From IMG/VR virus record IMGVR_UViG_3300035645_000269: 64,000 nucleotides of DNA. One strand, given 5' to 3'. Made by a program: the position numbers and the translations under genes. Of this stretch, positions 29,077-52,834 are shown in pieces. Origin of the DNA: a virus. Position 1 is the first letter of the stretch; the number at the start of each line of letters is the position of its first letter. The notes under the pieces were generated by a model. The model saw only the letters and a list, made by a program, of their open reading frames with translations, did not search any database and was not told the origin of the DNA.

Positions 29077-29691
29077 ATGAGAACAGTAACAGTTGAAGTG
29101 CCCGAAGGACACATGGTAAAAATCGTGAAAGAAGAAAGTATGCAACCTACTCAAAAAGTTACGGGGGGGGGTAAATTTGAATTTGAGGGTGAGACATTCA
29201 TCCCCGGTGACGTAATTATCAATCCGAATCGCGGAGGGGGCAGCATGATGATTCTCTCTGAAATTAGAGAAGAAAGGCCACTCTCTTTTTTACCGGCAAT
29301 TAAAGTACCTTTCGGCCTTGTCGCCTATGTTCCTTCCAATGATGAAGGTGACAGAGTTTTTGTAAGACTCACACCCGAAGCTGGTATCGGAGGCATGAAG
29401 GGATTCCGTAAAGCTACGGAAGAGGAAAAGGCAAAGATGCTTGCCGCCATGAAGGAAGAAAAACATTACTCCTTCAATTTTGAGAAGTTACAGCCTGAAT
29501 ATATCCCGACTGTCGGCGATGTTGTTATTGTATGGGATGATAATAGCAAAGAAAATGCGGTAGTCGGTGTTATGAATGAAATGGATAAAACAGTCAGGCC
29601 ATACAAGATAAATGATGGTACTTGGTATGGGAACTGCGACAAGTTCGTTTCAGAAGAACAATATAAAAATTTGATTGATGGGAAAGAGTAA
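29077..29691 (+). CDS. hypothetical protein containing an in-frame G9 tract
   Basis: 204 aa. The poly-G at about 29163-29171 encodes TGGG. Confidence 0.35.
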   Translation: MRTVTVEVPEGHMVKIVKEESMQPTQKVTGGGKFEFEGETFIPGDVIINPNRGGGSMMILSEIREERPLSFLPAIKVPFGLVAYVPSNDEGDRVFVRLTPEAGIGGMKGFRKATEEEKAKMLAAMKEEKHYSFNFEKLQPEYIPTVGDVVIVWDDNSKENAVVGVMNEMDKTVRPYKINDGTWYGNCDKFVSEEQYKNLIDGKE

Positions 29692-30410
29692 ATCTAAATC
29701 GGGGGGGGCGAGAAATTACACTCCCCTTCTCACAGCTCGCCCAAAGGGAATGAGCTACCAAGAATATCGTGAACGCAGAGCCTATCAGAACGCATGGTTG
29801 AAAGAGCGACTGAAAGGCTTTATTTGTTATGTATCGTCTGAACTGGTTGTATATGACAAAATAACGGGATTACCCCGATTATTCAATCATCGTACAGATG
29901 ATATACACAAAGCAAACATAAGGACTAACCCACAGCCATTTGTCGGTTCTGCCCGATATGGCTTAAAACCTTTATGATATGGATAAAGAACTATTTAAAG
30001 ATAAGAATCCATTGCTTCGCAGACAAATGTTGGAAGACAATTGCGCAGCAGTTGAAAGAATTACCTATACTTCTCCTTTCAGCGAGGAAGAAATGGGTGA
30101 ACGGAAAACGGAGTTGGCAAATATTGACCTTGACATGGCCGCACTGGAAGAAGAAAAGAAAGCTTTCATGCAAGCATACAAGGACAAACTGAAACCTAAA
30201 AAGGAACGTAAAAAAACGTTGCTTACCGATATAAAACGTGGTTATGAGGAAATTACGGATGAATGCTTTAAGTTTATGGATCGTAGCACCCGTACCACCG
30301 GATATTACAATGGTAATGGCGATTTGGTTAAAGAACGTCCGATGGAGGCACAAGAGATGCAAAAAACGGTCTTCGAGGACATTGAATCTACTGGTACGGA
30401 GGGATAAGCC

Positions 30411-30689
30411 ATGAGAAAAGAAGAACTTATCAAGCAAGTAGCCGAATCAACCGGTATTGCTATTTGCGAAGTCCGAACAGTTATAGAAGCAGCATTGAAG
30501 GAAACCGTGGATGCAGTAGCTAATGGAAGAACTCTTTATATCAGAGGTTTTGGTACACTGTCACCCAAACACTATAAACGAAAAGTTGCTCGTAACATAC
30601 ACAAAAACGAGACTATTGTCATAGCGGAGCATTATACTCCACACTTCAAACCAGCCAAATCATTTAAAAACAGAACTAAAAATTTGTAG
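30411..30689 (+). CDS. HU/IHF-family DNA-binding protein
   Basis: GFGTLSPKHYKRKVARNIHKNETIVIAEHYTPHFKPAKSFK fits the HU beta-arm pattern. Confidence 0.7.
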   Translation: MRKEELIKQVAESTGIAICEVRTVIEAALKETVDAVANGRTLYIRGFGTLSPKHYKRKVARNIHKNETIVIAEHYTPHFKPAKSFKNRTKNL

Positions 30690-31598
30690 AACAACATGGA
30701 AAACGAAAAGATGCAAGTGAACTTTGCTCCGGGTGTGACCGAAGCAACCCTTAGAGTTATTGAACTTCACGAAGAAAATGAGTTACCGGTACTGGAGCCT
30801 GATAAGGTAGAATTAGCCGGAACAATTGGAAGTGTTCATGAATTTCTCTTGAAAAGAATCTCTGAAAAAGAGCAGATCAATCAGAAACGTTGCTATATTC
30901 TTGTTGATCGGGAGAAAATGACACTTAAACTTGTCACCAATGAAACTGACAGTAGGAATAAAGCTACTGTAAGAGGTGAGTTGAAATACTATCCCAAGTT
31001 TCTTGAATTTGGTATTAACACAAGCAAGACATGGGAACCGGTGCAGCTTTCAAAGTTCTTCAAAATGAATCGTGCCTTCTTCAAGGATGCACAATACAAC
31101 ATGGAACTGGTAACAGTCTTGAAGAACTTCAAAGCCAGCATTGACTCAAAAGTGGAAAACTCCCGACAAGACAACGGTAGTCGCACTGACAATTACAGCC
31201 AAGTTGTCAACTCCAATCTTCCGGCCTCATTCAATCTTATTGTCCCGATTTTCAAAGGTCGCCCTGCAGAAGAGATTGAAGTGGAAATCATTGCAGATGT
31301 GGACGGGCGTAATATTCGATTGTCCCTTTGCTCCCCTGGTGCAGAAGTGATAGTGGAAGAGGAACGCAACAAGGCCATTGACGAGCAATTATTGTTGATC
31401 CGTAAATTGGCACCGGATATTGCCATTATCGAACAATAACAATGAAGACTGTAAAGAAATACTGGAAGCCGGTACTTGTCGTATCGGCTTTCTTCATTGG
31501 CAACCGCGTATTCAATCACATAAATGCGTGGTTGGGAATTTCAATAATTATGCTGACAGTAGCATTTATAGTTTATAATATCATTAAAAAAGTAGAAA

Positions 31599-32408
31599 AT
31601 GAAAAGAAAGATTGATTTTTTGATTGTGGCACTATTTGCCGTTGTTTTGTTTGCTTCATGCGAAAGAGTTGCTCCCAATTATGCCGGTGTCCTTATGGAG
31701 AACTACGGCAAACAAGGGAAAGAAGATTTTAAAATCGTTGCCGGTAAGGTATCTACATGGGAATTAGGCACAGAGCTTTTTCAAGTTCCGCTATTCGATC
31801 AGCGTGGAGAATTTTCTGATCCAGTCACACTAAAAGCAGCCGACAATACAGAGTTTACAGCCCGGCCAACTTACTCTTATAAAGTAATGAAAAACAGGGC
31901 TATTGATATTGTATTTGATAACAAGCATATTGATAAGGCTGACACCCCATCGGGAAAAGATGGCTTTATGCAATCATTAGAAGATAATATTTTGGAGCCA
32001 CGTATATATGATCTTATCAAAGAAGAAAGTCGCAAACATAAAACAGACAGTCTGATGGCTGACGGTGGTTCATTGGTATTTGAAAAGAGACTGGAACAGA
32101 TCGTTGATAAAGAATTTGAGAAACGGGGATTGCAGTTATTGACCTTCTCCGCACAATTGGAATTTTCAAGAGCTGTCCGCGATAAAATAGATAGCCGTAA
32201 CGAGGTAAACACTAATATTTCGGTACTTGATCAGAAGATTGAAGAACAAAAGAAGCAAAACGAACTGGAGCAACTAAAAACAGAACAAGCTTTAATTGCG
32301 TCCCGTGGACTCACCCGTGAGATTTTATATAAACAATTTATAGACAAGTGGGACGGGAAGACACCTCTATATGGCATTGCTCCTGAATTTTTAAAAATGA
32401 CAAAATAA
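31599..32408 (+). CDS. SPFH/band-7-like lipoprotein
   Basis: Lipoprotein signal LFASCE, then a region with coiled-coil C-terminus (EEQKKQNELEQLKTEQ). Confidence 0.35.
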   Translation: MKRKIDFLIVALFAVVLFASCERVAPNYAGVLMENYGKQGKEDFKIVAGKVSTWELGTELFQVPLFDQRGEFSDPVTLKAADNTEFTARPTYSYKVMKNRAIDIVFDNKHIDKADTPSGKDGFMQSLEDNILEPRIYDLIKEESRKHKTDSLMADGGSLVFEKRLEQIVDKEFEKRGLQLLTFSAQLEFSRAVRDKIDSRNEVNTNISVLDQKIEEQKKQNELEQLKTEQALIASRGLTREILYKQFIDKWDGKTPLYGIAPEFLKMTK

Positions 32409-33155
32409 TATGCTGACATTTCAACAAAGAAGAGATACGATATTGTCTCAATTTGCACAAGCAAAAGCCGATTTGGAAACACTTAATAGTGATATTGATG
32501 CAGAAATCGAAAAGAATAAATCTGTTATTTCTACACTAACTTCTAAAAATACAGAATTGGCCTCTTTAAAAAGTAATAATGAAGGCTCAATCAAGACTTT
32601 TGCTAAATTCCTAAAATAATAATTATCAACCCGATTAATAATCAGCTTCTCCCGGTGTGGCTTGACCGCCTATCCGGGAACTATCATGCCTCACCTTTTT
32701 TCTTCTCTTTGCAAGTCGAGTCGAGTACGCTGCATACGCTCCACGGCGGTAGATACTACAAAGAGTCTTTTTGTTCATGTAAAATGCCTCTATTGTAGAG
32801 GCAAACGGATAAGTGGCGAAATCGGAAGACGCTTAGTTTCTGTGGTAAAAATGCACGAATAGCATCACGAGTCAGGTAATATGCTATTAACACTTGACAT
32901 ACGTACAAACGGAAGCAGAAACGAAAATCCTGATTGCAACAGTTCCCGGTTCGAGTCCGGGCTTATCCACATAAATCAATCATTATGAAAGTTGAAATCC
33001 CCGACTATTTCCTAAAATCCTTTATCCGACATTTTGAAAGGATAACCGAGAATTGTAAAGCTTCACCTTCTGACATCAAGACCAGTGAAGCACTAAGGCT
33101 TGGAAAGAAAGATGTAATTAAGCTCAAAAGATTTATAAACAAAAAAGTATAATTT

Positions 33156-33611
33156 ATGAAACGAAGGATCATAGGTATAGATGTTGGCAAAAACGGTGGA
33201 ATTGTAGTGTACGACACCGAGAATAACAAATTATTGGAGTGTATCAAAATGCCACCAACTCCCAAAGACTTATTAGATTTTCTCTCCATATACAAAGAAA
33301 ATAGCGTTTGTTATTTGGAACGAGTGAATGGCATGACCGGACAAAGTGCTTCTGCCTCTTTTGTTTTTGGAGAAGGTTACGGACAGCTGACTATGGGATT
33401 GATAGCTTGTGGGATTCCGACAGTAACAGTATCTCCACAAACTTGGCAAAAAACTATAGGATTACGAAATACAGACAAATTGGGTAAGACAGAATGGAAA
33501 AACATCTTAAAGAAGAAAGCCCAACAGCTGTTCCCGTATGCAAAAGTTACATTGGCAACTTCGGATGCCTTACTAATATGTGAATATGGTAGAATTAAAG
33601 AAAAGGAATAA
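33156..33611 (+). CDS. RuvC-like Holliday junction resolvase
   Basis: N-terminal IIGIDVGKNGGIVVYD (RNase H-fold catalytic Asp), 151 aa. Confidence 0.5.
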   Translation: MKRRIIGIDVGKNGGIVVYDTENNKLLECIKMPPTPKDLLDFLSIYKENSVCYLERVNGMTGQSASASFVFGEGYGQLTMGLIACGIPTVTVSPQTWQKTIGLRNTDKLGKTEWKNILKKKAQQLFPYAKVTLATSDALLICEYGRIKEKE

Positions 33612-33886
33612 TGGAAAAATTAAAAAAATGTAGCAAATGTGGCCGGGAACTTCCGGTCAGTGAGTTTTGGAAAAATGCTTCAACCGAAGATGGATTGCAG
33701 ACATATTGTAAAGAGTGCGGTAATGTTTATGCCAGAAACCGTAAGAAAACTCCGGGGGGGGGGAATTTGAAGAAAATATATTCCAATCCTGAATTGGCAA
33801 AATTTTCTCCACGGGAACTTATCGCAGAATTGAAAGCACGTGGATATACCGGAGAATTGAAATACACCCAAACAATATCATTATAA
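33611..33886 (+). CDS. zinc-ribbon protein containing an in-frame G10 tract
   Basis: CSKCG...CKECG. The G10 at about 33754-33763 encodes PGGG. Confidence 0.35.
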   Translation: MEKLKKCSKCGRELPVSEFWKNASTEDGLQTYCKECGNVYARNRKKTPGGGNLKKIYSNPELAKFSPRELIAELKARGYTGELKYTQTISL

Positions 33887-34423
33887 ATGGAAAAGTTACG
33901 TCTATTGGTTACAACCAAATGTCCGAACAAATGTCCTATGTGTTGCAACAACTCATGGGATTTTTCAAAATTACCAGTTGTTGAGCACTTTAATTACAAA
34001 GAGATCATGATAACTGGTGGAGAACCACTTTTGTTTCCTGAAAAACTGGCAAATTTGGCTGAAAGTATCAAAACCGTTCAAAAATTGGCCTATGGTAATA
34101 AAGGAAAATTATTTCTATATACGGCACTGGCTGATATGCTCCCCAATTATATCAGATACTTCGATGGAGTTGTTTACACTCCACATTCTGTTAATGATGT
34201 TCATAGTTTATTGGAGGCCAATAATTTTTTGTTGGATTACAAAGATGAACTTATGGAAAGTAAATCTCTTCGGCTCAATCTTTTTCCTGATATTAAAAAG
34301 CATATTCCTGACAACACAGACCTTTCGTTATGGAAAGTAAAAGATATGCAATGGATCAAAGATTGCCCGGTTCCGGCTGATGAAGAGTTCAAAAGAGTAG
34401 CTGAATTATGGGAGGTGGAATGA
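33887..34423 (+). CDS. radical SAM-like protein (QueE/NrdG-like)
   Basis: CPNKCPMC (CX3CX2C) and ITGGEPLL glycine motif. Confidence 0.45.
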   Translation: MEKLRLLVTTKCPNKCPMCCNNSWDFSKLPVVEHFNYKEIMITGGEPLLFPEKLANLAESIKTVQKLAYGNKGKLFLYTALADMLPNYIRYFDGVVYTPHSVNDVHSLLEANNFLLDYKDELMESKSLRLNLFPDIKKHIPDNTDLSLWKVKDMQWIKDCPVPADEEFKRVAELWEVE

Positions 34424-34550
34424 TGAAAGATGTAATTACCCCCCCCATACACAACATCTCTATCCTTATCGCTGGTCTTTAGAAGATGCTGTTTTTACTA
34501 AAGATAAAGGAAAGGTATTTTCTTGTTTTGCATGTGGCGGTGGCTCTACT

Positions 34551-35513
34551 ATGGGTTACAAAATAGCAGGTTACGATGTTATTGGCTGTAATGAGATTGA
34601 TCCACGAATGATGAAATGCTATGAAACAAACCATCATCCCCAGTATAGTTATTTGGAAGATATTCGTGATTTAGTGAAAAGGAATAATCTTCCCGAAGAA
34701 CTGTACCATTTAGATATATTGGACGGATCACCACCTTGCAGTACATTTAGCATGTCGGGATTACGTGAAGATGCGTGGGGTAAAGAAAAGAAATTCAAAG
34801 AAGGTCAAAAGACACAAGTTTTAGACACGCTCTTTTTTGATTTTATTGCACTTGCCAAACGCTTAAAACCTAAAGTCGTTATTGCTGAAAATGTGAAAGG
34901 ACTTCTTTTAGGGAATGCGATTGATTATGTCAGACGTATATACAAAGACTTTGAGGAAGCTGGTTATTATTGTCAGCATTTTCTTCTTGATGCTTCTAAA
35001 ATGGGAGTACCTCAAAAAAGAGAACGTGTATTCTTTATATGTATCAGGCATGATTTGGGAGTCCATTTCCTAAAAGTTTCAGACCTCTTCAATGTTGAGC
35101 CATACATCGACATGGAATTTAATGAATCGGAAATATATTATGGGGAATATGCGGATTACAAGGGAAAGCCTATTGGTGTAAAAATGAGAAAGTTATTTGA
35201 GCAGAGAGTGGCAGGAGATATTGCTTTGGCAGAGGCCTATAAGAAACAAACTGGAAAACGAGGCTTTTTTAATCAACAATATCTATATGAGAACAAAGTA
35301 AGCTACACCCTAACAACTCATGCAGACTCAATTATTCCTTTTAAGCAGCCTATATATTTATCACGGTCAGAAGTATGTAATATATCCACATTTCCACAAG
35401 ATTATCATTTCCTCAACCAATCCCCACATTATATCTGTGGAATGAGTGTACCACCCGTTATGATGGCGCACGTAGCCTCACGAATATGGAAATATTGGTT
35501 ATCTAAATTATAA
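34551..35513 (+). CDS. C5-cytosine DNA methyltransferase, N-terminus displaced into another frame by a poly-C tract
   Basis: Motif IV GSPPCSTFSMSG and motif VI VIAENVKGLL. Motif I (VFSCFACGGGSTMG) is encoded in-frame upstream of the annotated Met, but the only upstream ATGs (34420/34423) are in another frame across a C8 tract at about 34439-34446. Confidence 0.75.
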   Translation: MGYKIAGYDVIGCNEIDPRMMKCYETNHHPQYSYLEDIRDLVKRNNLPEELYHLDILDGSPPCSTFSMSGLREDAWGKEKKFKEGQKTQVLDTLFFDFIALAKRLKPKVVIAENVKGLLLGNAIDYVRRIYKDFEEAGYYCQHFLLDASKMGVPQKRERVFFICIRHDLGVHFLKVSDLFNVEPYIDMEFNESEIYYGEYADYKGKPIGVKMRKLFEQRVAGDIALAEAYKKQTGKRGFFNQQYLYENKVSYTLTTHADSIIPFKQPIYLSRSEVCNISTFPQDYHFLNQSPHYICGMSVPPVMMAHVASRIWKYWLSKL

Positions 35514-37178
35514 ATCAAATGAAATCAGAAGAATTAGCAACCCAGTGGTGTCAGGATCATCCTGATGCAACATTGGAACAAGCATTCATGGCCGGATTAG
35601 GCCATAAGATGAATATGAATAAGGATTCTCTTTCTGCAAGGAAAGACAAATTCAGAAGTGAAGTCCTCATGTATAGAGGGAAATATCCTGATGATATGTT
35701 GAAGGACTTTTTCGAGTATTGGACTGAATGCGGAGGACGGAAAATGCGCTTTGAGAAGGAACGTACATTTGAAGTTTCCAAACGTTTAGTCAGATGGTCT
35801 AATAATGATTTTAACAAGTATGGGAAACAACTTAATTCAAGTCAACAGCAATCTCCCGGCAACCGAAAAGAAAGCGTTGAAAGACTTGCTGACCTTGCAA
35901 GCGGAGTATTACAAGGGATTGCACGTAAGTTCGATTAAAGAAGCTGTTCTCAACACTCCTAACCTACCACTCTCCGTTATAAGAAAAGAAATCACATTGG
36001 CTGGCGCAAGAGCCATACTGGTAATTGCGATTAACGAGCTTGTGTCTTTTTTCAATGTTGGAAAAACGATGAATGATGTTCAAGTGGCACTTACCGCTGA
36101 TCTAATAATAGACAGATTCTATTATCTCAAATTGGAGGAAATCAAATTGTGTTTCCGTAATGCTATGGCTTCCGGTAAGATTTACGATAGACTGGACGGT
36201 AATATCATTCTCGGCTGGTTAAATGAATACGATGCACAGCGTGATGAAATTGTTTCTTCTCTTTCAATTAATGAAGCCCATGAACAAAATAATAACAGCA
36301 CTGGAATGTTCTACGGAGAATATATCAAACATCTAACTGAAAGATCGGAAAATGGAGATGAAGAGGCCAAAGAATTATTGGAATCCCATCAATCATTCAT
36401 ACAAAGGATGAAATCAAATGATAAAGAAGCCGCTTTCAAAAAATGGAAAGAAGAATATTATGGAAGAACTAAGAGACAAACTACTTGACTGGGCGAAACA
36501 ATTTGAAACACCTGATTTTATAAAAGATGATCCTATATTTTTTCCACATAAGTACAATGATAAAAAGGACATAGAAATCAGTGCCTTTCTTACTTCATGG
36601 ATAGCTTTCGGGAATCGCAAACTGATAATGCAGCAAGCAGAAATTTTGGATAATCTAATGGGTAATTCTCCTTATGCCTTCATTATGAACAAAGTATGGG
36701 AACAATACAAAGAAAATACAAATACCTTCTACCGTATGTTCACCTACCATGACTTCTTCTGCATTTGCCAGCGGTTGTACAACATATATCAGGAATGGGA
36801 TGATTTGGAAGTATTTTATGAGGGTTACAACAATGTTATCCGTGAAATACAAACAGATTTTGGTGGCGTAAAAGGTATTCCAAAATTGGAGCGTGATTCT
36901 CCATGCAAGCGTATTTGTCTGTTTCTACGGTGGGTAGTACGAAAATCGCCGGTGGATTTAGGTATTTGGAATATTATTCACCCGACAGAATTATACATAC
37001 CATTGGATGCACATGTTGCAAAAATGGCACACCAGCTTGGGATAACAACACGCAAAACAGAGGACTGGAAAATGGTTCAACAAGTAACCAATTACATGAA
37101 AACAATTTTCCCGGATGATCCGTGCCGGGGAGATTTTGCATTATTCGGATATAGTATTAACAATAAATAATTTACATT

Positions 37179-37763
37179 ATGTCAGAACTTAAAATCACAC
37201 AAGAAAAGGTAACAGCCGCTTTTAGTGAAGCAAACGACTGTCCTAAAGCAATTAGTATTCTAACAGCCCTATTCGGAAAGCAAAAGCCGGATTATACAGA
37301 TTATCACAATATTAAAACCTACGAAGATGCTTGTGAAGCAATAGGTGTAAAACCTATTGTTCGCCTACTTGTTGAGGATGAAGACGGACACAAAGAAGAA
37401 GTGGCTGATATTGCACACCTCGCCTACATCAAACTATGCACAATTGCTCGTGCATTGAACAACGATCCTGATTTTCCACGATTTACTAAAGATGAATACC
37501 GTTATACGCCGTGGTTTTATCTTTATAATCAGAAAGAAATTGATGAAATGGACGAAGAGGATCGTAATCAGCTGGTTCTTTGGGGCGGTAGTGCGGATAA
37601 CGGTGCGTATTGCGGCCTCGCTTATGCGGACTCGAATCTCGTTTGGTCGACCTCGTTTGCGTCTGTCGGCTCTCGCCTTGCTGTAAAATCAAGTGAAATC
37701 GCAATTTACTTTGGAGAACAATTCAAAGAATTGTGGAAAGACTTTCTGATTGGAAAAAAGTAA
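37179..37763 (+). CDS. remote DGR-2 target protein (small, C-terminal VR)
   Basis: The C-terminal ~107 nt match TR2 (51284..51391, minus strand) except at TR adenines. Encodes ...LVLWGGSADNGAYCGLAYADSNLVWSTSFASVGSRLA. Confidence 0.6.
   Translation: MSELKITQEKVTAAFSEANDCPKAISILTALFGKQKPDYTDYHNIKTYEDACEAIGVKPIVRLLVEDEDGHKEEVADIAHLAYIKLCTIARALNNDPDFPRFTKDEYRYTPWFYLYNQKEIDEMDEEDRNQLVLWGGSADNGAYCGLAYADSNLVWSTSFASVGSRLAVKSSEIAIYFGEQFKELWKDFLIGKK
37571..37677 (+). repeat. DGR variable repeat (VR2), cognate to TR2
   Basis: gctggttctttggggcggtaGtgcgGataacggtgcgTattgcggcctcgcttatgcgGactcgaatCTcgTttggtcgaCctcgTTtgcgTCtGtcggctctcgcc. Capital letters mark differences from TR2, all at TR2 adenines. Confidence 0.7.
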
Positions 37764-38627
37764 TCACACTGGGGAGGCCGCATCAAAGCGGCCTTTTCCA
37801 TACCTTTTAAATCTATGACTCCAAAAGAATTTTTCGACAAAGTGGTGGAAATGCGCCGTTGCCAAAAAGAATATTTCAAAAATAAGAGACAGATAGATTT
37901 ACGAATAAGTAAACAAATTGAGCGTGAAGTAGATGAAGAAATTGAACGTGTTCAAAAAATCCTTCACGACAAACAGAATCCGCAACTCTTTTAGACTATG
38001 GTTAATATGAAAATCCTTGACCTGCCATTAAAAGCAAAATGGTATGAAATGATCGAATCCGGAAATAAGAAAGAAGAATACAGAGAGATCAAGAAATACT
38101 GGATCGGAAGATTAGCAAAATGTGGAGGTCGCAATTCCTATGAAAAGACTGGTTTCTATTGTAAGAAAGCTATTTGTTTTTCTTGTATTACACGTGGAAA
38201 CGGCTTTCACCCCAAAGAATACACTCATGTTTGCTTCCGTTTTGGCTACACCAAACGGACAATGCTTTTTGAACTTGAATCTATAACCATCGGAGTTGGT
38301 AACACCAATTGGGGAGCACCGGATAACGAATGTGTATTTATACTTAAACTGGGAAAATGTATCAAAAAAAATGAAAGTAAGGACTCAACAGAATTTCAAC
38401 CGAAAAACTCGTGAAACAGTATTCGGTATCAGCATCATGCCTGACGGTGGCAGAAGATATTGTAAATACCCAATAGGCCACCAAGAATACAAAGACTATA
38501 CCCAAGCACACCAAGCTATGAAAGATGTACAAAAGATATTGGATAATGGAGGCCGATTAGTGTATTCTCCCAAAGGTAGTGCCGGGATTAATAAAAATGA
38601 ATATGTAAAAATTGAAATGACATAAAA

Positions 38628-39478
38628 ATGAAAATATTAGTAAGTTTTTCAGGTGGTAAGGATTCACAAGCATGTTTGATCCAAGCCTTCAAACAATATG
38701 GGGGGGGGATTTAATCGCTGTGTTTTGTGACACCGGCTGGGAACACCCTGACACATATAAACATGTGAATGATGTTTGTCTGCAAATGGGAGTAAGACTT
38801 ATAACTCTCAAATCAAAATACGATTTTGTGTCTTTGGCAGTTCACAAGAAAAGATTTCCTTCCACGAATGCACGGTTTTGTACCAGTGAACTAAAAATGA
38901 AGCCAATGATTGATTATGTACTTTCTTTGAAAGAAAGCTGCATTATTATACAAGGTATCAGAGCCGGAGAAAGTACAGCACGTGCGGCAATGGAAGAGGA
39001 ATGTATGTACTTCAAATCGTATTTTCAACCTAATAAGAAAGGAAGAACTGAAAACTACCGAAGTAAGGATGTCAAAGAATGGTGTTCCCAATTTGACGCT
39101 TCTGTTCTAAGACCGATCTTCAAATGGAGTGCACAGCAAGTTATAGATTGCATACTGGATGCAGGGCAGAAACCGAATCCATTGTATTATCGTGGATTCT
39201 CACGTGTTGGATGTTTCCCGTGTATCATGTGTCGGCATAAAGAAATTGAACTTATAGCCAAAAATGATCCTGAAATGTGTCAACGTCTGATTCAAGCAGA
39301 GAAAAACGTGGGACATTCCTTCTTTCCTCCATCATACATACCTCAAAGATTCTGTAAAAACAAACAATATCCTTATGTAGAGGAAGTTTTGGAGTACGTT
39401 AAAGAACATACCCCTGATATGTTCGAGCCGGAAAGTGGATATGCCTGCATGAGCCTGTTTCATGGACTATGCGAATAA
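38628..39478 (+). CDS. PAPS reductase-family (PP-loop) protein, split by a poly-G tract
   Basis: The upstream ATG gives MKILVSFSGGKDSQACLIQAFKQYGGG (PP-loop SGGKDS) and stops just after the G tract at about 38700-38708. ORF 38672..39478 continues in another frame with GIRAGESTARAAMEE. Confidence 0.55.
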
Positions 39479-44019: not shown

Positions 44020-44961
44020 TATAGGAACCGGACAATTAATAAAGTTGATTGTTGAGACGTTTGTCCTTATCTTTGCACTACCATGTGTCTATAAAGATTT
44101 CATGAACTTATGGAAAGAAAAATAGGTGATATAAAAGACAAGAAGTTAAAAGCTGAAAATATCACACTGGCAGCAATATATAACATATTGTTCACCAATG
44201 ACATAGTTTGTTCCTTAATTGTAGAAATGTTAAGTGAATTACGTAAATCAAGGCTTTGTCGTTTCCGCGTAAAGCAGCAAGGAAATAAACTGGAACAGTT
44301 GATGCTTCAATATGAAAAGAAAATCAATAAAATAGCTGGACACCGGGCTTTTTTCATGGCTGATGCTAACCAGTATATTGCAGATGAAGTACAACCTGAT
44401 CTGCTTAAAATGGAATACTCCATTAAACTGGAATTTGACAAATGCCGGATTGAAAACAGTGCCTTACTTGCCAAAGTAGAACTTACAAGATGTATGGCAG
44501 AGCTTGCTTGTCTATCCCTTGACAAACGGATAGAAGAAGTCCGTCCATACAACAAAGAAGTAACCGGAATAACATATCTCCGGCTCACTGACACACTTAA
44601 AGTATTGGACGAACTTTCTGATATTTTATATAAGGGAGGGTATTGTGACCTCAATCAAAGTGATAATTGCAAAAGGGGGATGGCTATCATACAACGAAAA
44701 CTTACTGATTGTGATATTATCAGCCGCGCAATCAATGAGTCAGACAAGTTAAATCCGGCTGGGGATGATGAATAAAAATGGCAAAATATCGTATAGGAAT
44801 ATCCGAGAATCTATTAGGAGACAAACGCTATCAGTGTCAGATTAAAAGATTTGGCATTTGGTGGAATGATGAAAGTTTCAGCACTAAAGAAAGAATGTTA
44901 GATTATGCCCGTAAACTTGAAAAGGCCGGGCATATAGTGTTTAACTATTTATAAGCGAACA

Positions 44962-50998: not shown

Positions 50999-51283
50999 TG
51001 CTGCTTTGTTTTAAAATTTACACCATACTTCCAATTTTGTCTTGTTCAGACTATTTTAATTATTCCGATAACTGCAAGCTGTTTTTACTTGCTTGAATAA
51101 TTCGCCCGGAGCTTTCGAGAACCAACCTACTAACACCGCTTGTTGCCTTTCGCAAATTGGGCAACCTTTCCGCATTCTTGATTTTCTGACATCGTAACCA
51201 ATTGATTACTACGTTGCAACGATATAAATCCTGCAAGGTCATGGCTCGGAGAACTCGCAGATTACTCTACGATAAATAAGTAT

Positions 51284-51391
51284 GGCGAGAGCCGATATTC
51301 GCATTCGAGTTCGACCAATCGTTATTCGAGTTCGCATAAGCGAGGCCGCAATTCGCACCGTTATTCGCATTACCGCCCCAAAGAACCAGCT
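51284..51391 (-). repeat. DGR-2 template repeat (TR2)
   Basis: Minus strand reads agctggttctttggggcggtaatgcgaataacggtgcgaattgcggcctcgcttatgcgaactcgaataacgattggtcgaactcgaatgcgaatatcggctctcgcc. About 75-80% identical to TR1 and adenine-rich. Confidence 0.75.
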
Positions 51392-51514: not shown

Positions 51515-52834
51515 TTATGCAGCCATCAAAGATGCACCGCTAACAAATGTTAAATTCCCAAAATACGCAAGGCGAGAGCCGATACCCGCATACGAGAGCG
51601 ACCAATCGTTAGACGAGGTCGCACAAGCGAGGCCGCAATTCGCACCGTCATACGCAAGACCGCCCCAAAGAACCAGCTGCCCAGTAGTGTTTGCCCATGA
51701 ATAATCAGCCCAATAAGAAGTGCTGTTTCCACCAATCTTTTTCGGGAAAATATCAAAATGCTCCCCAAGAATTATTTCCTGCACTTGACCGGAAGCTGTC
51801 TGACGGGTAGCTTGTCTGTATTCACCATTTGGATGCGCAGCTAATTCAGCAGTAGTCGGTAAACGGTTTCCTTTGTAAATGAAAATTTCCGTTCCACTTT
51901 GAGCACTATTGTTGGAACTACCGCAAAATACTCCTTGCAGAAATTCCCACTGCCACCCATAAGGATCTTCTATACCCATCATGTTCACCCGTGAACAATC
52001 CACTCCAGTATTACTTCCATTCACCACAGAAATAGCTATTTTGCCCCAATTGTCACCGAGACTCTTTGTTGCGCCAGTTTGCAATGCTGCCGCAGCAGCC
52101 CACAAGTCTTTACTGGAGCTACCACCCACACCATAACCAAGTTTGGCTTGAATATTGGTATCTCCGTACTGGGACAGCCCCAACATCATAATAAGCTTTC
52201 TCTGATCGTAATCGGTCAGTCCCCATTCCTTACCGTTCACTTGTGCAGCATTCCAAAATGCGTTGATTGTCTTGCTGCCTGCCGGTGCAACTCCTGAACG
52301 TGAAACAAGTGCGCTACCTGACATGGAGCCTTTGTATGCACCGATACAGTTATACATTCCACCATTTGCCCCACCAATAAACTCACCGCCAATAGGTAGC
52401 ATCGAGAGCCATAAGACTGGTACACCACTCACACTGTCAGTCTGTACACGATAATACAAACGTGGCCCTATCCACATCACATGCCCTTTGGTTTCATCCA
52501 CCGCAGTACCATCAGCAAACACCGCACTATTGGTAGGGGACATTTTAGCAGCCCTTCCATCATTCGTTACGAGATAACGGCCACAATACAACTTGTATTC
52601 TGTCCATGCGGCTGTATTACCTATCACACCATAGTTCGTGCTACTTTGGGTTGATTGTTTGATTGGAATCCCCCAAGCCACCTGCCTCAACATTTGTTCG
52701 TCACCATTATTAATAGCATTCATGAAGTTTTCCACGGTAATGCGTCTGACACTACCACCAACTTCCACCAATACTGTATTGGAACGCAGAATGGAGGTCA
52801 CCAATGTTTCATTTCCTAATCCTTTAGTTGCCAT
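51515..52834 (-). CDS. DGR-2 target protein with C-terminal VR
   Basis: 439 aa. C-terminus ...QLVLWGGLAYDGANCGLACATSSNDWSLSYAGIGSRLAY is encoded by VR3. Confidence 0.7.
   Translation of the reverse strand: MATKGLGNETLVTSILRSNTVLVEVGGSVRRITVENFMNAINNGDEQMLRQVAWGIPIKQSTQSSTNYGVIGNTAAWTEYKLYCGRYLVTNDGRAAKMSPTNSAVFADGTAVDETKGHVMWIGPRLYYRVQTDSVSGVPVLWLSMLPIGGEFIGGANGGMYNCIGAYKGSMSGSALVSRSGVAPAGSKTINAFWNAAQVNGKEWGLTDYDQRKLIMMLGLSQYGDTNIQAKLGYGVGGSSSKDLWAAAAALQTGATKSLGDNWGKIAISVVNGSNTGVDCSRVNMMGIEDPYGWQWEFLQGVFCGSSNNSAQSGTEIFIYKGNRLPTTAELAAHPNGEYRQATRQTASGQVQEIILGEHFDIFPKKIGGNSTSYWADYSWANTTGQLVLWGGLAYDGANCGLACATSSNDWSLSYAGIGSRLAYFGNLTFVSGASLMAA
51560..51667 (-). repeat. DGR-2 variable repeat (VR3)
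   Basis: Identical to TR2 over about 108 nt except about 12 positions, all at TR2 adenines (aat to ctt, gaataac to gtatgac, ttatgcgaactcgaataac to ttgtgcgacctcgtctaac, and so on). Confidence 0.8.

Follow-up and report, generated by a model that had tools for sequence, protein, structure and literature searches.

Why does one operon of a temperate Bacteroides phage, in a region of 37-42% G+C, hold five long runs of G or C inside its genes? The window, that is, the whole 64 kb stretch of DNA analysed here (IMGVR_UViG_3300035645_000269), belongs to a LoVEphage-type temperate phage of Bacteroides and Phocaeicola. An earlier note had compared the runs to the loci of slipped-strand phase variation. 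In our assessment the five runs are probably (at a probability of roughly 0.75) slipped-strand contingency loci that give combinatorial on/off states, phage DNA-modification genes being among those switched.

The phage and its early operon

Sequence identity of the window to LoVEphage, and to two temperate phages obtained by induction, PV4-TP1 and BI-TP1, is 96.7-99.5%. LoVEphage ranks among the most prevalent temperate phages of the human gut, with a reported presence in some 8-14% of gut viromes (PMC8525569, PMC12629997), and its induction has been reported from three host species (PMC12629997). Cultured isolates of LoVEphage exist. All genes that carry a tract lie on the + strand, downstream of the Cro-like/RecE/RecT side of the immunity region. 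Their operon appears to be an early, lytic-side one, and expression would be expected in the lytic cycle.

Five long runs within 9.5 kb

Exactly five G/C homopolymers of at least 8 bases are present in the window, all inside 9.5 kb, and the other 54 kb contains none. A recount finds each where the earlier note had placed it. In the lines below, ON denotes a length that would give the full-length product, and OFF a length that would give an early-terminated or N-terminally truncated one.

29163..29171, + strand: T1, G9, codons 29-32 of ORF 29077-29691 (204 aa); ON in the window
29701..29708, + strand: T2, G8, codons 8-11 of ORF 29678-29977 (99 aa); ON in the window
33754..33763, + strand: T3, G10, codons 48-51 of ORF 33611-33886 (91 aa zinc-ribbon protein); ON in the window
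34439..34446, + strand: T4, C8, codons 11-14 of the full-length C5 DNA methyltransferase; OFF in the window
38700..38708, + strand: T5, G9, codons 24-27 of the PAPS-reductase-family gene; OFF in the window

The run-length spectrum of the window is bimodal: G runs number 9, 1 and 0 at lengths 5, 6 and 7, then 1, 2 and 1 at lengths 8, 9 and 10, and C runs number 10, 3 and 0 at lengths 5, 6 and 7, then one at length 8. A chance origin had been called extremely unlikely, and the calculation agrees: a first-order Markov model, which overestimates the empirical tail for long runs, gives an expectation of 0.61 runs per window (Poisson P = 4e-4) and of 0.08 in the 29-39 kb region (P = 3e-8). The probability that five random points all fall inside 9.5 of 64 kb is 2e-3. 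The tracts occupy the 5' coding parts of their genes, at codons 8-51 of the five ORFs. Three of them had been said to encode Gly-Gly-Gly in frame; T1-T3 are indeed in frame, but T2 encodes Ser-Gly-Gly-Ala, and its ORF most likely starts at ATG 29678 instead of at 29675.

Two further sites in the window belong to the same picture:

38364..38371, + strand: A8 tract at the 3' end of the ASCH-like ORF 37998-38414; length-polymorphic
44633..44640, + strand: interrupted proto-tract AGGGAGGG in ORF 44110-44775 (221 aa)

The A-tract is A7 in 5 genomes, A8 in 15 and A9 in 3, and because of this polymorphism it is likely to be a sixth slippage site; A7 fuses the ASCH-like ORF with an overlapping frame to give 207 aa instead of 138 aa. 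In some relatives the site at 44633 carries an uninterrupted G8 or G11, so that the birth of a tract is seen in progress. A further two tracts occur in relatives, one in an N6_N4 methyltransferase and the other in a Dam-type methyltransferase. The clade has eight tracts, all of them 5'-proximal or in the middle of coding sequences within a single operon.

The genes under the tracts

Gene 1, which carries T1, has tract lengths of 7-11 in relatives (22 ON, 12 off), and is annotated as two CDS in the genomes where T1 is off. Its OFF form (148 aa) is found in at least 1000 contigs, complete Bacteroidaceae chromosomes among them, and its ON form belongs to a sequence cluster of 4089 members; both forms are common in nature. 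T2 measures 7-12 bases in relatives (24 ON, 10 off), and in sister lineages without the tract the site reads AGGGGAGT. T3 has lengths of 7-11 (20 ON, 33 off), some alleles consisting of GGGA followed by G8-10. The PHROG matches of its protein (endonuclease VII, HNH, Lar-like) are confined to the zinc ribbon.

Three genes follow that require their own coordinates:

33887..34423, + strand: small radical-SAM gene (178 aa), with a weak Radical_SAM match and a CxxxCxxC motif visible in the sequence
34408..35513, + strand: gene for a C5 cytosine DNA methyltransferase, with a frameshift at T4 in the window
38628..39478, + strand: PAPS-reductase-family PP-loop enzyme gene, frameshifted at T5

The ATG of the radical-SAM gene abuts the stop of the T3 gene (TAA ATG junction), and the ON start of the methyltransferase falls within its 3' end, an arrangement in which it is possibly coupled translationally to both neighbours.

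T4 had been placed between the radical-SAM ORF and the methyltransferase. It lies instead inside the 5' coding part of the methyltransferase, out of frame in the window. The companion claim, that the tract splits the enzyme, holds: the start codon and the first 11 codons are upstream of the tract, and motif I, downstream of it, is therefore left without an in-frame start codon. A C9 at T4 links ATG 34408 (MGGGMMKDVITPP) to the body of the methyltransferase to give 368 aa, and two relatives with C9 (L003 and L004) have the gene annotated as one 1107-nt CDS. Lengths in relatives run from C7 to C11 (18 ON, 32 off). The 320-aa ORF of the window (ATG 34551) lacks motif I; a complete C5 methyltransferase domain, with motif I (FACGGGS) and the PC motif (SPPCSTFS), is obtained only in the C9 reconstruction. 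This ON form matches PF00145 (residues 36-360, profile 2-322 of 324, E 4e-45) as well as TIGR00675, and aligns to PDB 8yf3 from residue 32, with FACGGGS opposite FAGGGGS. The enzyme is an orphan, Type II-like methyltransferase carried by the phage, and no endonuclease is annotated next to it.

The frameshift at T5 detaches the PP-loop (SGGKDS) from the PAPS-reductase-family enzyme, so the earlier note was correct that it separates the N-terminal catalytic part: the N-terminal MKILVSFSGGKDS is out of frame with the 268-aa ORF 38672-39478. One extra G restores an intact enzyme of 283 aa, and only in this reconstruction do the PP-loop (SFSGGKDS) and the PAPS_reduct domain share one chain (PF01507, residues 3-200, profile 2-173 of 175, E 2e-24). 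Lengths in relatives range from G7 to G12, with 4 ON and 17 off in an unbiased set; L011, L032, L087 and L095 are among the genomes with an ON allele. More than 50 distant homologues read Y-G-A-D-K-I-E-A, with the tract absent and a single intact ORF. The PADLOC matches of the protein (SspD 7e-23, BrxP 2e-17, DndC 1e-7) are limited to the shared domain, and no SspABC, DndABDE or BREX partner genes are annotated near the gene. DndC identity was considered and rejected, with a TIGR03183 score of 25 against a cut-off of 290. The likeness to SspD, BrxP and DndC is best taken as a lead to a DNA-modifying role, not as family membership.

Tract length varies between near-identical genomes

Comparison with about 70 related genomes, a check that the earlier note had proposed, places each tract at a constant position, with lengths of 7-12 bases and all three frames populated. 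Among 19 pairs of genomes with zero SNPs in about 860 flanking columns, T3 differs in length in 68% and T4 in 79%, and homopolymers of 5-7 bases between 27 and 41 kb are nearly all invariant among genomes. Both observations support slipped-strand phase variation. Since tract lengths differ between otherwise identical genomes, each gene appears to flip on and off, and the 25 genomes with all five tracts display 14 distinct on/off combinations. The ON share in the unbiased set is 36% for T3, 33% for T4 and 19% for T5, which is the expectation for random frames, so that ON is not visibly favoured at these three tracts in the sampled genomes. At T1 and T2 in-frame lengths are in excess (p about 0.003), a binomial result that is indicative only because the genomes are not phylogenetically independent. 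GenBank annotations split or fuse the tract genes in agreement with the frame state. Some of the one-base differences between assemblies are possibly consensus errors, or an arbitrary pick among mixed reads.

Selection on genes and tracts

Downstream of the tracts dN/dS is 0.04-0.15, and this includes the mostly-OFF PAPS-family gene (0.04 against L092 and L043). No other inactivating mutations are seen in the tract genes of most genomes. Such values indicate strong purifying selection on the tract genes, and not decay. In the divergent lineage L043/L092, T1, T3 and T5 are kept at a dS of about 0.8-1.5, and a rough calculation puts the probability that nine synonymous Gly sites would all stay G by chance at about 3e-4; on these two grounds the tract itself appears to be selected. 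Tract-less relatives, like the more than 50 distant homologues, show one uninterrupted ORF each, and it can be aligned to the ON form without gaps, which identifies the ON frame as the ancestral one by sequence comparison. Some sister lineages lack the tract genes.

Recoding, artefact or neutral hot spots

Could the lengths be a product of sequencing or assembly, each tract having one true in-frame length and the rest being homopolymer miscalls? Variation is confined to runs of at least 8 bases, A8 included, as length-dependent error predicts; some contigs have very low coverage, and several terminate at or within a tract. Against this, the variation recurs in genomes of cultured phages, in isolate and complete bacterial genomes and in many independent Illumina assemblies, some at about 100-245x coverage. 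Differences reach 2-4 bases (G8 against G11 or G12 at T2, G8 against G12 at T5), no single length brings all genomes into frame, and random error would not produce the in-frame excess at T1 and T2. We regard an artefact as most improbable. The idea that the runs are neutral mutational hot spots, arisen by chance or bias and breaking dispensable accessory genes that are being lost, draws on the near-random ON fraction at T3-T5 and on the absence of tract genes from some sister lineages. It is very unlikely in view of the low dN/dS, the scarcity of further inactivating mutations and the retention of pure tracts in the divergent lineage; nor does it sit well with five tracts here, and eight in the clade, in one operon, when 54 kb of the window have none.

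The low dN/dS has also to be set against the fact that at T3-T5 the majority of the genomes sampled have an out-of-frame length, and here recoding offers an answer. RNA polymerase slippage or ribosomal frameshifting would give some full-length protein at any tract length, the tracts tuning expression level or rescuing frameshifts and setting no heritable on/off states. Transcriptional slippage is known to occur at homopolymers of at least 9 bases, the poly(A) rescue of insect endosymbionts being one example. In these bacteria out-of-frame homopolymers are fixed and rescued at the RNA level, the genes being under purifying selection. LoVEphage resembles them in that long out-of-frame homopolymers persist in genes under purifying selection; it differs in that the DNA length of its tracts varies among near-identical genomes and in-frame alleles are common. 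Moreover, intermittent selection on ON variants would explain the low dN/dS too, and the length differences between genomes are heritable in the DNA. A programmed recoding site was rejected as a description, since such a site needs a conserved relation between the upstream and downstream frames, and near-identical genomes present three frames at every tract. Recoding as the whole explanation is thus unlikely, and it is not mutually exclusive with genetic switching.

How switching would work

In a slipped-strand contingency locus, mispairing during DNA replication would add or remove G:C pairs at the tract, and the change in length would shift the frame and flip the gene heritably and reversibly. 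For the OFF states of the window, this would mean a methyltransferase whose motif I has no in-frame start and a PAPS-family enzyme without its PP-loop. Two of the five genes switched in the window are DNA-modifying or probably so, and relatives would add two more switched methyltransferases. If switching occurs within one population, as we infer, the progeny are likely to be mixed, with differing combinations of DNA modification. Such a mixture may hedge the phage's bets against the diverse restriction-modification and modification-dependent restriction systems of the several host species that it infects. The tracts lie in a phage genome, and the types of gene (a methyltransferase, an SspD/BrxP/DndC-like enzyme) would fit a role in defence evasion.

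Relation to known switching systems

Repeat-driven on/off switching is textbook biology in a few bacterial pathogens; in phages, to our knowledge, demonstrations are limited to Campylobacter phages and to T-even phages, the latter in a preprint of 2025. Bacteroidota, the host phylum of LoVEphage, are better known for invertible-promoter switching. The polyG phages of Campylobacter are reportedly lytic, infect an AT-rich host that itself switches by polyG, and have tracts that affect host-recognition functions. Sorensen et al. 2021 (Cell Rep) reportedly linked hypermutable polyG tracts in these phages to phenotypic diversity among the progeny. In both groups of phages several G runs per genome lie inside coding sequences and change in length. 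In contrast with the Campylobacter phages, LoVEphage is temperate, has Bacteroidota hosts, carries its tracts in an early operon with a methyltransferase and a PAPS-family enzyme, and is known here from genomes alone.

A closer functional parallel is the DNA-modification gene agt of phage T2, a contingency locus that hedges between TgvAB and McrBC (Gomez, Barrick and Waters 2025 preprint, PMC12633550). The likeness consists in a homopolymer within a phage DNA-modification gene and, presumably in LoVEphage as well, in reversible frameshifts and progeny mixed for modification, a hedge between restriction aimed at modified DNA and restriction aimed at unmodified DNA. In the T-even phages experiments have measured the tracts, which are A runs of 6-9 bases within an AT-rich genome (PMC12633550), whereas those of LoVEphage are G/C runs of 8-12 bases at 37-42% G+C, far above chance and in one operon, and are described by comparison of natural genomes only. 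T4 also resembles the tracts of bacterial phasevarions, in which a repeat within the 5' portion of a methyltransferase gene turns methylation on or off randomly; the C. jejuni Type IIG enzyme, reportedly polyG-controlled, is an example (PMC4889913). Phasevarions consist of chromosomal Mod or Type I/IIG restriction-modification genes, and their switching alters host gene expression. By comparison, the LoVEphage methyltransferases are orphan and Type II-like, and their operon is expected to be repressed in the lysogen, so that the phage's own DNA is the likely target of methylation. Membership of a phasevarion was therefore rejected for the enzyme under T4: it is an orphan C5 methyltransferase of a phage, not part of a chromosomal system with a Type III mod, Type I or IIG gene.

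Implications for LoVEphage and its hosts

Repeat-driven switching thus appears to be a known trick newly seen in LoVEphage. The signature is unusually clean, with tracts that are clustered, far above chance and pure across saturating synonymous divergence, and they fall mostly in DNA-modification genes. A practical consequence concerns annotation. Gene callers split or truncate the tract genes differently in every deposited genome, and for this reason the methyltransferase content of LoVEphage-like prophages is mis-scored, as is their predicted methylation.

A wider proposal is possible, if somewhat doubtful at present. If 5-8 tracts govern as many as three DNA methyltransferases, an SspD/BrxP-like PP-loop enzyme and a number of early genes, every burst would be a combinatorial library of virions that differ in modification. 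Together with a diversity-generating retroelement for receptor binding, such epigenetic bet-hedging might be what allows a single phage species to lysogenise several species of Bacteroides and Phocaeicola whose restriction systems differ greatly. The restriction landscape of Bacteroides is a mosaic (PMC10333322), and tract switching would be a concrete and testable explanation for how the phage copes with it.

The five tracts and their surroundings

A homopolymer scan of the whole window finds exactly five runs of G or C of at least 8 bases, at the coordinates recorded in the earlier note. They are named T1 to T5 from 5' to 3', and a tract is called ON when it is in frame and the product is full-length, OFF when it is out of frame and the product truncated.

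G/C tracts in the window
T1: 29163-29171, + strand, G9, codons 29-32 of the 204-aa ORF 29077-29691 (gene 1), in frame
T2: 29701-29708, + strand, G8, codons 8-11 of a 99-aa ORF with most likely start ATG 29678 (gene 2), in frame
T3: 33754-33763, + strand, G10, codons 48-51 of the 91-aa zinc-ribbon ORF 33611-33886, in frame
T4: 34439-34446, + strand, C8, codons 11-14 of the full-length C5 methyltransferase, out of frame
T5: 38700-38708, + strand, G9, codons 24-27 of the PAPS-reductase-family gene, out of frame

The tract region has a G+C content of 37-42%, and the run-length spectrum of the window shows a gap: four G or C runs of length 6, none of length 7, and then the five long ones. For G/C runs of at least 8 bases, an analytic first-order Markov estimate, which overshoots the tail of the empirical run spectrum considered with it, predicts 0.6 per 64 kb (P = 4e-4) and, for 29-39 kb, 0.08 (P = 3e-8). 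The probability that five points placed at random all lie inside 9.5 kb of 64 kb is 2e-3. The cluster is real, and chance is ruled out as its source. A structural role, such as a G-quadruplex, was set aside, because a single run of 8-10 G gives no four G-blocks and the placement of the tracts is accounted for by their frame effects.

From 28 to 40 kb the window shares 96.7-99.5% identity with Bacteroides phage LoVEphage (MW660583 and three OY records), and it is equally close to two temperate phages, PV4-TP1, induced from Phocaeicola vulgatus, and BI-TP1, induced from Bacteroides intestinalis. In the PV4-TP1 annotation the tract-bearing genes form a single co-oriented block, which begins with a Cro-like HTH gene divergent from an S24-type repressor and continues with exonuclease VIII, RecT, then RtcB ligase, an excisionase-like gene and SSB. 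The block is an early lytic-side operon, and its gene order suggests that it would be silent in the lysogen. Between the switched genes, the same operon encodes a very short radical-SAM protein (33887-34423, 178 aa, with CxxxCxxC and GGEPLL) and a DUF2400/TIGR02757 protein (36418-37170). The radical-SAM gene is kept in sister lineages that have neither the zinc-ribbon nor the methyltransferase gene beside it. Its ATG directly abuts the stop of the T3 ORF, and with the zinc-ribbon, radical-SAM and methyltransferase junctions this tight, it can be speculated that T3 may also influence translation of the radical-SAM gene.

Length variation at conserved positions

Relatives were collected in two ways. 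The radical-SAM protein gave six phage records, 80 IMG/VR loci and 6 GTDB genome loci. A metagenome search with the PAPS gene in its ON form gave at least 570 matches, of which the best 80 loci were kept; these 80 are enriched for ON at T5, and their T5 counts are left out of the ON fraction. About 70 of the collected loci belong to the LoVEphage clade. Length polymorphism at conserved positions in related phages, which the earlier note proposed as a check on slipped-strand phase variation, is seen across this clade: every one of the five tracts keeps its position and varies in length.

Tract lengths in relatives and ON/off counts (unbiased set)
T1: lengths 7-11, ON/off 16/10
T2: lengths 7-12, ON/off 16/9
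T3: lengths 7-11, ON/off 14/25
T4: lengths 7-11, ON/off 12/24
T5: lengths 7-12, ON/off 4/17

The ON state at T1 and T2 exceeds the one-third expected of a random frame (p about 0.003), and T3-T5 show no such excess. Among the 25 genomes that carry all five tracts there are 14 different on/off combinations, the commonest being that of the window itself (T1-T3 ON, T4-T5 OFF). GenBank annotations split or fuse the tract genes in line with tract length. For gene 1 both forms are abundant, the 148-aa OFF product occurring in at least 1000 contigs of up to 7.1 Mb and the ON cluster holding 4089 sequences, figures from which no ON:OFF ratio can be derived because the shorter OFF product collapses into fewer distinct sequences.

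The tracts also differ between genomes that are otherwise the same. In an alignment of the stretch with T3 and T4 (25 genomes, 863 unmasked columns), 19 genome pairs have zero SNPs; their T3 lengths are unlike in 68% and their T4 lengths in 79%. The other 27 homopolymers of 5-8 bases between 27 and 41 kb, taken from the same genomes as a control, are invariant or nearly so, with the exception of three A runs. Instability thus climbs steeply as runs get longer. Slippage predicts this, and the same rise would come from sequencing or assembly error. That such error accounts for all of the length variation is nevertheless very improbable: the tracts, in varying lengths, are seen in genomes of cultured phages, in isolate and complete bacterial genomes, and in numerous Illumina assemblies made independently, some of them covered 100-245x; lengths can differ by 2-4 bases; and T1 and T2 show an excess of in-frame lengths. 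Single one-base differences may be consensus noise. Several metagenomic contigs start or stop at tracts, namely loci L009 (at T1 and T4), L015 and L023 (inside tracts), and L103 and L106 (at T5), which suggests that assemblers break there, possibly as reads disagree on length; these cases are anecdotal, true ends not being cleanly separable from flank cuts.

The three A runs differ in character. At 38364-38371, in the 3' end of the ASCH-like ORF 37998-38414, the A8 of the window is A7 in 5, A8 in 15 and A9 in 3 relatives. A7 would join the ORF to the frame that overlaps it (38296-38625) and yield 207 aa vs 138 aa, and the run could be a further contingency tract or a slippery recoding site. 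The A6 at 31586-31591, 8 nt upstream of the ATG at 31599 of a band-7/lipoprotein-like gene, ranges from A6 to A9 among 31 relatives, a variation that might change translation initiation or promoter spacing. The A6 at 33141-33146 lies towards the end of ORF 32934-33152; 14 relatives have A5 there and 18 have A6, which looks like two fixed alleles, not a hypermutable tract.

Selection and ancestry

The coding sequence 3' of the tracts is under strong purifying selection, with dN/dS, computed downstream of each tract, of 0.04 for the PAPS gene, 0.06 for the zinc-ribbon gene, 0.09 for gene 2, 0.13-0.15 for gene 1 and 0.16-0.32 for the methyltransferase. In the divergent lineage L043/L092 (Bacteroides sp. 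GD17; dS 0.8-1.5 from the window), T1, T3 and T5 are still pure; by a rough Jukes-Cantor estimate, nine Gly third positions that are free to change would all stay G with a probability of about 3e-4. Sister lineages without tracts carry the same genes intact, for example with AGGGGAGT at the T2 site, and the PAPS gene has over 50 distant homologues with Y-G-A-D-K-I-E-A in an uninterrupted ORF, which can be aligned to the ON form codon by codon. On these two grounds the ON frame is ancestral. The repeat is derived and has been maintained, in genes that are not decaying.

Products of the tract-bearing genes

T4 had been placed between genes in the earlier note, a reading that has to be revised: it lies inside the methyltransferase, since an extra C joins the ATG at 34408 (MGGGMMKDVITPP...) to the body. 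The product reconstructed with C9 has 368 aa, covers 2-322 of 324 positions of the Pfam DNA_methylase profile and aligns to the solved enzyme 8yf3 from residue 32, motif I included (FACGGGS vs FAGGGGS); the 320-aa methyltransferase ORF of the window itself starts past motif I. T5 cuts the PP-loop MKILVSFSGGKDS off the remainder of the PAPS-reductase-family enzyme. With a G added, the product has 283 aa and covers 2-173 of 175 positions of the PAPS_reduct profile; its closest defence-system profiles are SspD, BrxP and DndC. This similarity is a lead towards a possible DNA-modifying role; membership of a Dnd, Ssp or BREX system was rejected, the gene scoring far under the DndC family cut-off and having no partner genes nearby. 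Genes 1 and 2 have no usable match in Pfam, PHROGs, NCBIfam or PADLOC, and an AlphaFold2 model of the T1 protein is of low confidence (pLDDT 41.6, pTM 0.28, from a 13-sequence alignment with all members at least 70% identical).

Relatives carry further tracts in two genes absent from the window: C7-9 in the gene of an N6_N4 DNA methyltransferase, and G7-9 in that of a Dam-type methyltransferase, which is annotated as two CDS in PV4-TP1 (extra tract loci of the two: L032:16642, L032:18811 and, in PV4-TP1, L093:33781). At 44633-44640, in a 221-aa gene (ORF 44110-44775), the window has the interrupted AGGGAGGG, and relatives have GGGGAGGG, G8 (PV4-TP1, L115) or G11 (L154), a series that looks like a new poly-G tract arising step by step. 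In total the clade has at least eight tract loci, all within the early operon, and four of the eight are in DNA-modification or probable DNA-modification genes.

A repeat pair of a different kind lies at 51274-51391 and 51561-51678 (- strand), 118 nt each and 86% identical, with 15 of 16 mismatches at a + strand T (- strand A). The two copies are the template repeat and the variable repeat of LoVEphage's diversity-generating retroelement, which has been described before.

Proposed slipped-strand switching of phage DNA modification

The best-supported mechanism is slipped-strand mispairing at classical contingency loci, under which the tracts would switch within a population. Slippage at the runs would produce heritable, reversible changes of frame. 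Programmed recoding, in which the tracts would serve as frameshift sites, is unlikely as the main device, the frame relation not being conserved at the tracts; transcriptional slippage may leak some product. Mixed DNA modification among the phages would then hedge against both restriction-modification and modification-dependent restriction. Bet-hedging of this kind is suggested by the functions of the genes, by the reported multi-species host range (PMC12629997) and by the mosaic methylation landscape of Bacteroides (PMC10333322). The agt gene of phage T2, in which a poly-A tract hedges between TgvAB and McrBC, is a direct precedent for hedging of phage DNA modification (PMC12633550).

None of the LoVEphage paper, the 2025 temperate-phage paper (PMC12629997) and the Bacteroides methylome paper (PMC10333322) mentions homopolymers, tract-linked frameshifts or phase-variable phage genes. 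The tracts are likewise unmentioned in the literature searched on LoVEphage and on Bacteroides methyltransferases. The principle of tract switching is known from Campylobacter phages, T-even phages and bacterial phase-variable methyltransferases; the case here has a notably clean evolutionary signature, in a very prevalent phage of the human gut.
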